Assembly: GCA_965649765.1 (NCBI GenBank)
Contig: OZ287748.1
Coordinates: 40,424,001-40,488,000, forward strand
DNA length: 64,000 nucleotides
Source: Bispira polyomma
Lineage: Eukaryota
Reading direction: 5' to 3'
Under the pieces are notes generated by a model, which was given only the letters and a program-made list of their open reading frames with translations, did not search any database and was not told the DNA's origin. A program made the translations under genes and the position numbers. Positions 17,601 to 20,600 of the stretch are shown piece after piece (position 1 is the first letter of the stretch; every line of letters begins with the position of its first letter).

Positions 17601-20600
17601 CTAGCTCTTATGTATACAGATATGTAAGAAATTGTCCGGATGACTAAGGTGTTCACTAAGCCACTGCACTGACGTGTCTAATGGAGGCTCTATTCCTTGT
17701 ATAATGACGCGGCACTTTTGATCCCCTTCACCTGTAACAACACAATAGACAGAACAAAGAGTAGACCTTATCTTATCCAAACATCTTGGAACAGAAACAT
17801 AATGTTTAGCTAACAGAAGGTGCATCAAATAAATGAGGCATTTCATAAAATATAAAATAATAGAAAAACATCAACTAAAAAGCATAAACTGAAAGTCTGG
17901 GGTTGGCTCTTATTATGTATGCTAAGCTATTAATCAATTTCACTCATGGAAATAAAAACGTAATATTGATGATGTCAAAACAATTGAGTGAGATTAGAAG
18001 GCCAACTATACAGAATGTTAACCTCTCTGGCCTAGTAGTAGACTGGTGCACTTCACACCTGAGGGTCTATCACTGCTATAGGTTCAGGGACTGTGTACCC
18101 TTGGACAAAGTATTTAATTTATACATGTCTTTATCTGCCCACTCCATGAAGAAAAAAATTGGCTAAAGGCTAAGGCTTGTACTCTAGAATGTATACTCAG
18201 CTCAAACTCTTACTTAACTCAAATCTGGGTACTGTATAACTCTGGCTAGAGTAAATCATATCTAAAATCTGACTTCATATTTGAATTCAGTGTTGAAAGC
18301 TCTATATTAAAATGAAGGGTCACAAGTATAAGTTATTTCCACGAATAACAATTTCCATACAACCAATATTTAGTTGTGTATGAATTTAAGCATGAGTTTA
18401 TTTCAAGAATACCAGGCCAGTACTTCACATTACTACTGTTCCAGTAGAACCTTTTTGATACAAACTTTAGGTTATCCAAATATTCAAGTTTAACTGATTA
18501 TCACTATTCCAAATTTTTGTTTACCAATTGTGTTAAATGTTAATTTGTGCCTCTTCTATTTTATGAACATCCTATTATAAAAACAAAATTTTCCTTTCTC
18601 CTCAAAAAAAAAAAGATCTTTGTAATGTCACCTGAGAAAGGGACATAAAACCTAAACAAACATTGTACTCGGAAGTAAATATAGGTCAATACATGTACAG
18701 ATTAGGGAGTTAGCCTGCAACAGACAGGCATCAATCCAGGACAGTACCAGTGCTCCATGTGGCTTTATGTCAGGCAAAACCAAAAACAAGCTTCAGCATA
18801 TGGGTCACCAACATCTAGAATGAGTTTTACCTCTACAAACCTATACAAATCTGTAATCAGCGATTCCATTTATGCACATAGGAACTGAAATTCAAGCAAA
18901 AATTTCACAACTTACGCACAAATAAATGATCTAGGGTCAGATCTACGCAGACTTTTTTTATTTTCAAATTTACATCGTTCTTAGGCATTGTTGTACAACC
19001 ACTTAAATTTTTTGCATCATCCCCAAAATTTAATTGCTGTCTTGAGCAATTTCAACTGTTGTATCTACCATTGCGGGTTTTGACATTGGAATATAGAACT
19101 TCAGTGACTAAATATATAATATATATGTATATCTTTACCTGACTGCTGTACATCTGGAATCACATGATCTAGGAGGTCTTTAAGAGTCAGAAGCACTCCT
19201 TCTTCAGACACTGGTCTGTACAGTTTCTGTAAGGCAGGACCCTCACCCTACAACAACAAACCAAGGGTCATATATATATATACACAGTGGAACCTCACTT
19301 ATCTGGTCTGTACAGTTTCTGCAAGGCAGAACCCTCACCCTACAACAACAAACCAGGTGCTATATATATACAGTAGAACCTCACTTATCTGGTCTGTACA
19401 GTTTTTGCAAGGCAGAACCCTCACCCTACAACAACAAACCAGGTGCCATATATATATACAGTAGAACCTCACTTATCTGGTCTGTACAGTTTCTGTAAGG
19501 CAGGACCCTCACCCTACAACAAACCAAGGGCCATATATATATATATATATACAGTAGAACCTCACTTATCTGGTCTGTACAGTTTCTGTAAGGCAGGACC
19601 CTCACACTACAACAAACCAAGGGCCATATGTATACAGTGGAACCTCACTTATCTGGTCTGTACAGTTTCTGCAAGGCAGGGACCCTCATCCTACAACAAA
19701 CCAGGTGCCATATGTATACAGCAGAACCTCACTTATCTGAATACTATTATCTGAATAGTCAATATTATGAACACATTTTCCTCAAATGTCTAGGGTTCTA
19801 TTACTGCTACAGGTTCTTGGACAAAGCATTTGACTTATAAATGTCTTTTTCTTGCTCTGCCAACATGTTCAGATAGTAGAGATTCTACTCTATCTATGAA
19901 AAGTATTAAACTTAATCTCCACCACAATTTGAAAATATGACACAAGAAATATTCAAGTTTGACCATATGTTTGAATTTTTTAAAAAAGCTTGTCAAAACA
20001 GATGGTAGCATGCGTAGGTTCTGTCTATTACGAAAATAATCTATAATCTGGTACAGTAGCACCCTGATTATGTAAATTTTTATTATCAGAATATACTGAT
20101 CTGGGTTTGCAATAATACTGAAATTGTCTAGGCTATTGAGAGAATAATAGAATATCCGCCAACACAATACCCTCTAAAACTCAATACAAAAACGATTTGT
20201 ATATTATTGAACTGTTTTCCAATTTATAGGTATACATTTATCTGCCTGTATTTAAAGCGCTACATAATAAACCTTTTTTGATGGCCCAAGCAAAGCCAAC
20301 CAGCACCAGTACCTGTCATTCCCGTAAATGAAGAGAAATGCCTGATGTTGAACATTTATCCACATCTCCAAGGTTCTTTAGCCTGCTTCTGGGGATAGGA
20401 CCCAATAACACATGACCACCATTTTAAGTGATAGTACGAGCCATTATGTATCTCCTTATACTTGGTCATCCCAGGCTTGAATGAACCTGCATTCTAAGCG
20501 AGTGTGTTACCGACTAGACCACATTCGATGATCTTATACCTTTCTTCAGATGTTTTGCCTGGAGCTTTTATTTTAAAGCAAAACTAAATTAAGCTTAAAA

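Follow-up and report, generated by a model that had tools for sequence, protein, structure and literature searches.

Tandem copies of an ATG5 splice acceptor in Bispira polyomma and the occurrence of similar arrays at sampled splice junctions

The ATG5 locus

The DNA considered here, referred to as the window, is a stretch of 64,000 nucleotides from Bispira polyomma (assembly GCA_965649765.1, contig OZ287748.1, positions 40,424,001 to 40,488,000), and window positions are used throughout. Its minus strand carries the ATG5 coding span (17601..24995), in which seven coding exons separated by six introns, all of them GT-AG, encode 274 aa. The preliminary description had identified the gene correctly: the frames of all seven exons match the Pfam ATG5 domains, four of them above the cut-off, exon 4 has a single match in a genome search, and coding exons 6 and 7 align with ATG5 residues 195-225 and 231-269 in the PDB. 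Numbering counts coding exons only, exon 6 being the sixth of these. Exon 5 (20631..20719, minus strand) was placed by the exon chain and by a match to the Pfam HBR domain (E 0.011), and the donor of intron 5 lies at 20630. Exon 6 (19139..19247, minus strand, 109 nt) was placed by the exon chain, Pfam UblB (E 0.035) and PDB 4gdk_B residues 195-225 (E 0.0013). Twenty distant ATG5 loci were examined, with no close relative among them, and seven cover the exon 5/6 join. The exon chain is supported because in all seven the coding sequence runs from exon 5 directly into exon 6; a counterpart of intron 5 is absent from these same seven loci. In the distant animal genes (L188-L207), exons 2-4 and 5-7 are not separated by introns, and an intron interrupts exon 4 instead.

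Elsewhere in the window, a TMEM249-family open frame of 227 aa occupies 8978-9658 on the minus strand (Pfam E 3.6e-36), and broken frames at 1810-4912 on the plus strand resemble what we take to be a LINE endonuclease and reverse transcriptase.

Anatomy of the array at the intron 5/exon 6 border

The border between intron 5 and exon 6 is occupied by a mirage minisatellite of six units of 83-93 bp (19211..19739, minus strand), established by TRF, unit delimitation and alignment. Over 19211-19739, TRF returns a period of 88, 6.0 copies and 86% matches, confirming the array first reported. The units start at 19211, 19303, 19389, 19477, 19570 and 19653 and measure 92, 86, 88, 93, 83 and 84 bp; aligned in pairs, they differ by 2-10% substitutions, in addition to changes in their AT runs. 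Read on the minus strand, each unit opens with 18 nt of a MITE end, followed by an AT run, a short pyrimidine tract, AG and finally 37 nt of exon sequence. The last unit continues into the real exon 6, whose first 37 nt belong to it; the six amplified copies originally counted are therefore one real copy and five decoys. Similarly, the 37-nt exon segment recognized at the outset is found in each unit but is unchanged in one decoy only (19513), and amino-acid changes and one frameshift are present in the exon parts of the decoys.

The decoy exons, all on the minus strand, are numbered from the most upstream one. Decoy exon 1 (19649..19690) has gained one nucleotide by insertion and measures 42 nt, ending with an in-frame TAA. 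Decoy exons 2 (19566..19606), 3 (19473..19513), 4 (19385..19425) and 5 (19299..19339) all measure 41 nt. In the third, the exon part matches the real one letter for letter and the acceptor reaches the highest score, 12.1 bits; the fifth, with donor TAA/GTGAGG, has an extra AG at -21/-22 and lies 51 nt from the real acceptor. The arrangement AG, 41 nt, GTGAGG previously attributed to every decoy thus holds for four of the five, the most upstream having 42 nt and an in-frame stop. Head-to-tail units over an exon-intron boundary, a minisatellite unit size, imperfect copies, a terminal copy that is the real junction, and cryptic AG and GT kept in all five decoys together correspond to a mirage.

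Variable columns of the alignment group the units incompatibly (units 1, 4 and 5; units 1, 2 and 3; units 5 and 6), as expected from exchange between units. Three nucleotides, CTG, are common to both sides of the duplication junction. The microhomology noticed earlier is present at the breakpoint, and a microhomology-mediated mechanism would be compatible with it, although by hand calculation at least 3 nt would be shared by chance at about 5-7% of junctions.

DNA contigs match 19211-19319, 19292-19329, 19448-19493, 19466-19506 and 19650-20800 without any differing letter, and 19386-19477 with one. These contigs come from three runs and at most two samples of one study, which is possibly the source of the assembly itself. 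An assembly artefact was rejected as far as the contigs reach; no contig bridges the whole array and 19520-19611 is uncovered, so that the count of six rests on the assembly. Tandem duplication across the ATG5 acceptor together with a MITE end is supported.

Splice signals of the real and decoy sites

Introns were inferred from register with the Pfam profile and not by a splice model. Of the 45 exon pairs from myosin and kinesin genes, 28 had a single in-register GT-AG solution; adding the six introns of ATG5 yields a reference set of 34, of which about five look wrong and were kept in. On this scale GTGAGG, put forward in the preliminary description as a MITE-derived donor, is plausible: TAA/GTGAGG scores 6.2 bits, is identical in its GTGAGG in the five decoys and is equalled or exceeded by 18 of the 34 inferred real donors, a mid-range position, and its six intronic bases recur in a real kinesin donor. 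GT sites of equal quality occur in introns of this genome at 3.2 per kb. The acceptors of the ATG5 decoys score 7.9-12.1 bits, compared with 8.6 for the real site. Weak decoy sites were consequently rejected as an explanation for skipping, given that decoys score like real sites.

Scoring of branch points relied on the branch-point motif TnA and its distance rule. The real ATG5 unit has TnA in its AG-free zone, whereas none of the five decoys does. In the real acceptor region (19248..19302, minus strand) the predicted branch point is TGAC, whose A at 19268 (position -21) would be the one used. The motif is found in 23 of the 34 inferred real acceptors, in 19 of the 21 with a zone of at least 30 nt (hand count) and in 96% of 262 background YAG sites; the acceptors of ATG5 introns 3 and 6 are without it under the same rule. 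Of 276 single-base changes to a unit, 16 would create TnA and one a TRAY; the real unit has two private changes, so that it would have gained the loose motif by chance about once in nine cases. The five decoys are not independent of each other in this comparison. The branch-point difference between real copy and decoys is suggestive only, because decoys in most other acceptor arrays keep TnA.

RNA structure was rejected as the selector of the real site. A hairpin forms over the acceptor of each unit, real and decoy units being alike in this respect (z -0.1 to -1.2), and unpaired probabilities of 0.09-0.37 give no advantage to the real site.

Arrays at other splice junctions of this genome

Exons were sampled by Pfam family (myosin, kinesin and DEAD-box). 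Two paralog copies, three apparently intronless matches and three intron-spanning matches were dropped before the count, leaving 160 exon matches and 313 junctions. The top 30 kinase loci, mostly long single-exon matches, were excluded from the count, and no array edge was seen inside their matches, in a comparison for which one strand was set wrong. Among kinases, loci L143-L167 comprise many near-identical intronless frames that encode about 411-418 aa, are spread over at least 10 contigs and are possibly carried by a mobile element.

An array with the splice site in its end unit was found at 28 of the 313 junctions (about 9%, or one in eleven), at 18 of 158 donors and 10 of 155 acceptors. 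Positions shifted by 200-1000 nt into the intron carry arrays at a mean of 3.5%, a background that includes arrays of neighbouring exons; the junction value is 2.6-fold higher (binomial p 7.5e-6). A count by eye over the first 85 loci gave arrays at 19 of 170 edges. These figures apply to three gene families, to exons that are non-independent within a gene and to junctions called from sequence.

The arrays have 2-35 copies and occur in myosin, kinesin and DEAD-box genes (L033, L045, L048, L055, L057, L080, L095, L111, L129, L134 and others); at L129 there is one at each end of a single exon. One myosin gene is present in three near-identical copies on three contigs (L032, L033 and L034), in which a 53-bp donor unit is repeated 12, 24 and 17 times, respectively, apparently a sign of fast length change. 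Hairpins were rejected as seeds of these mirages, since the folding of 28 seed units showed no advantage over that of 84 control junctions (p 0.84).

Together with three arrays of the 64-kb window, the 28 sampled ones make up 31 that were compared. On the plus strand of the window, a 47-bp array of 24 copies (35663-36819) covers an acceptor and exon start, with a putative acceptor at 36797. The putative exon that follows (36797-36919) is 123 nt long and hydrophobic, has a GT donor and gave no Pfam match. AG is kept in 17 of its 23 decoys and TnA in 15; six far ones, in the farthest group but one, read CAA. On the minus strand, a 121-bp array of 3.8 copies that are 97% alike (57827-58284) covers the exon end and donor of a DUF4139 gene and keeps GT in its three decoys.

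Splice signals are widely retained in the sampled arrays, with the reservation that their decoys were picked by likeness, which favours kept signals: GT is kept in 184 of 192 decoys of donor arrays and, in the ten other acceptor arrays, AG in 49 of 52 decoys and AG with TnA in 39 of 52. Eight of these ten have TnA at both real and decoy sites. ATG5 is the sole one of 12 acceptor arrays with TnA at the real site and none in the decoys, and branch-point loss is therefore unnecessary for array persistence.

The MITE and the origin of the duplication

The element that contributes to the units is a 172-bp MITE (19719..19890, plus strand) with complementary ends and TIRs starting with CAG, flanked by TA at either end; every array unit includes the 18 nt of its left end. 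As initially proposed, it extends past 19740, to 19890. From its TIR, TA flanks and copy number we take it to be of the TA-targeting Tc1/mariner kind (pogo/Tigger-like). Like MITEs of that type it is short, non-coding and present in many copies, has CAG-starting TIRs and is flanked by TA; it differs by a middle in which 37 nt resemble another repeat. This middle part (19816-19852) is 86% like 18100-18136, a piece of a repeat in ATG5 intron 6 that is presumably SINE-like.

All 40 scored candidates, spread over 14 contigs, match as relatives, and 9 of 19 loci have 130-340 bp between TIR matches. In the 400 kb taken around myosin and kinesin genes, 49 TIR ends of the family were counted (122 per Mb), 35 of them after TA. 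A second, decayed copy of the same family is located within ATG5 intron 6 (18442-18590), and a 25-bp tandem triplication of the terminal repeat of the ATG5 MITE lies at 59081-59158.

The first duplication could have been initiated by the MITE itself, through a transposase nick at its left end and template-switch repair into exon 6. One breakpoint does lie 18 nt inside the MITE end, with 3 nt shared, but it is away from the TA at which transposases of this type cut, and TIR ends are frequent, at the density just given. Moreover, among the 31 junction arrays the TIR of this family, the only element family compared, is present in ATG5 alone and absent from 30, with 0.23 arrays expected to have it. 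On this account the MITE was rejected as a general cause of junction arrays, as far as this family is concerned, and its end in the ATG5 array looks incidental, no general part of such arrays. Initiation by the MITE at ATG5 is in our opinion unlikely; it bears solely on how the array arose and does not conflict with the best explanation given below.

Comparison with known boundary repeats

Repeats over exon-intron boundaries, known as mirages, are described for amphioxus in the globin genes BflGb6 and BflGb9, Adh3, troponin C and PGBD5 (PMC3087553, PMC3902484); according to these two reports, published mirages mostly leave splicing undisturbed. RT-PCR suggested regular splicing in amphioxus, and the mechanism of origin was called unclear (PMC3087553). 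The ATG5 array has in common with these mirages the tandem units over the 3' end of an intron and the 5' start of an exon, six units as in BflGb6 haplotype 1, and splice signals that are mostly kept among units of 81-100% identity. It differs in belonging to another animal lineage, in a unit that includes a MITE tip giving a donor-like site, in having the branch-point motif in the real copy only, and in that the frequency of the class was sampled here. It was in amphioxus that splicing and length instability were demonstrated; for ATG5, normal splicing is predicted from DNA sequence. Partial exons with splice sites inside introns are also mentioned in PMC2632668.

In the human CBS 844ins68 allele the acceptor is duplicated and the distal of two is used (PMC7490669, PMC1802585). 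There, too, the intron end and the exon start are duplicated, and G runs lie between the duplicated sites, while in the ATG5 array GGG runs open the exon part; the human allele has two copies and not six, is without a transposon tip, and its site selection was shown by experiment. Donor-side boundary arrays are reported in PMC1557585 for the 37-bp VNTR of human F7 intron 7, 6-16, CBS intron 13, LMNB2 and PDGF, with some use of pseudo-donors in 6-16 and CBS intron 13. These arrays likewise place a minisatellite unit over an exon-intron boundary, with pseudo-sites that are mostly silent. They are on the donor side and the first copy is used, so that ATG5 is their acceptor-side mirror.

Predicted consequences of decoy use

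If included as cassettes, the decoys would add 42, 41, 41, 41 and 41 nt. One 41-nt cassette would shift the frame so that a stop falls 48 nt upstream of the last junction; the 42-nt cassette, which ends with its in-frame stop, would place it 109 nt upstream. In mammals, NMD follows a 50-55-nt rule that may not be this animal's, and under it a stop at 48 nt would be borderline. Read-through from any decoy acceptor would meet a stop after 208-209 aa, and every decoy route tested is cut short after 208-228 of the 274 aa, with products that would lose most of the UblB domain. An in-frame coding repeat was rejected on the same grounds, the tested routes and four in-frame combinations of three cassettes all hitting a stop.

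Decoy use might be leaky but unregulated: a few % of transcripts might take a decoy acceptor, by read-through, or a 41-nt cassette, and the truncated messages would be lost as noise, with copy number perhaps shifting the leak. The AG and GT of real-like score in all five decoys and the early stop on every tested route would fit leakage of this kind, as would the pseudo-site use in human 6-16 and CBS intron 13 (PMC1557585). It is made improbable by TnA being absent from the five decoy AG-free zones and present in nearly all background YAG sites, by the many intronic donors that are equally good, and by the regular splicing that RT-PCR suggested in amphioxus (PMC3087553).

The preliminary description had proposed regulation: the MITE-supplied donor would turn the decoys into frameshifting poison micro-exons, whose inclusion would tune ATG5 through NMD. 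A predicted cassette flanked by AG and GT and bringing an early stop is indeed readable in the sequence, with AG, 41-42 nt and GTGAGG in each decoy, one identical donor of middle strength, and a real kinesin donor with the same six intronic bases, but the proposal finds no support and is very improbable, as the same architecture is found at 28 of 313 junctions of unrelated genes, one array in 31 contains the MITE end (expected 0.23), a single 41-nt exon would put the stop just 48 nt upstream of the last junction, the decoys are without the branch-point motif, and a literature search on ATG5 poison exons, largely among open papers, gave nothing beyond a general review, judged by title.

Interpretation

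Since myosin, kinesin and DEAD-box genes carry such arrays at 28 of the 313 junctions sampled, no special explanation is called for at ATG5. The best reading is likely a tolerated duplication with skipped decoys: a known kind of repeat, the mirage, copied here together with the tip of a MITE, whose five extra acceptors are likely ignored while ATG5 is spliced normally. We assign to it a probability of about 0.8. A predicted branch-point signal is confined to the last copy, which is possibly why the decoys would be ignored. It may be objected to their skipping that decoy acceptors and donor score like real ones and that the branch-point gate is not general.

The following course of events may be envisaged. 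A TA-targeting MITE would have inserted about 30 nt above the acceptor. A single duplication, reaching from within the MITE to a point within the exon and with 3 nt shared by its two ends, would then have produced two units, and unequal exchange may have raised these to six. As in CBS 844ins68, the last acceptor would be chosen through its pairing with the real donor of exon 6, a choice that the sole branch-point-like A, at -21, could favour.

The original interpretation is thus partly supported; the mirage class, its frequency and the branch-point asymmetry are points it did not contain.

Significance

Taken by itself, the ATG5 locus is unremarkable and adds one more gene to those with a repeat of this known kind. 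It nevertheless offers a natural test of acceptor choice: a branch-point A sets one of its six near-identical 3' splice sites apart from the others. Mirages were so far a matter of a handful of amphioxus and human genes, and neither a genome-wide count nor a report from a mollusc was found in a literature search that left most subscription papers outside its reach; here they are found at about 9% of sampled junctions. The frequency of arrays at junctions is a more interesting lead than the ATG5 locus itself. A bolder and tentative view, which we hold to be possible but doubtful, is that tandem duplication in this animal is concentrated at splice junctions by a junction-biased mutational process, linked for instance with transcription or splicing and likely amounting to tens of thousands of arrays genome-wide, and that ATG5 would illustrate one way in which selection resolves such a ladder, a branch-point A being allowed in the last copy only. 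Such a process, if real, would bear on intron gain and on annotation errors in genomes of this type.
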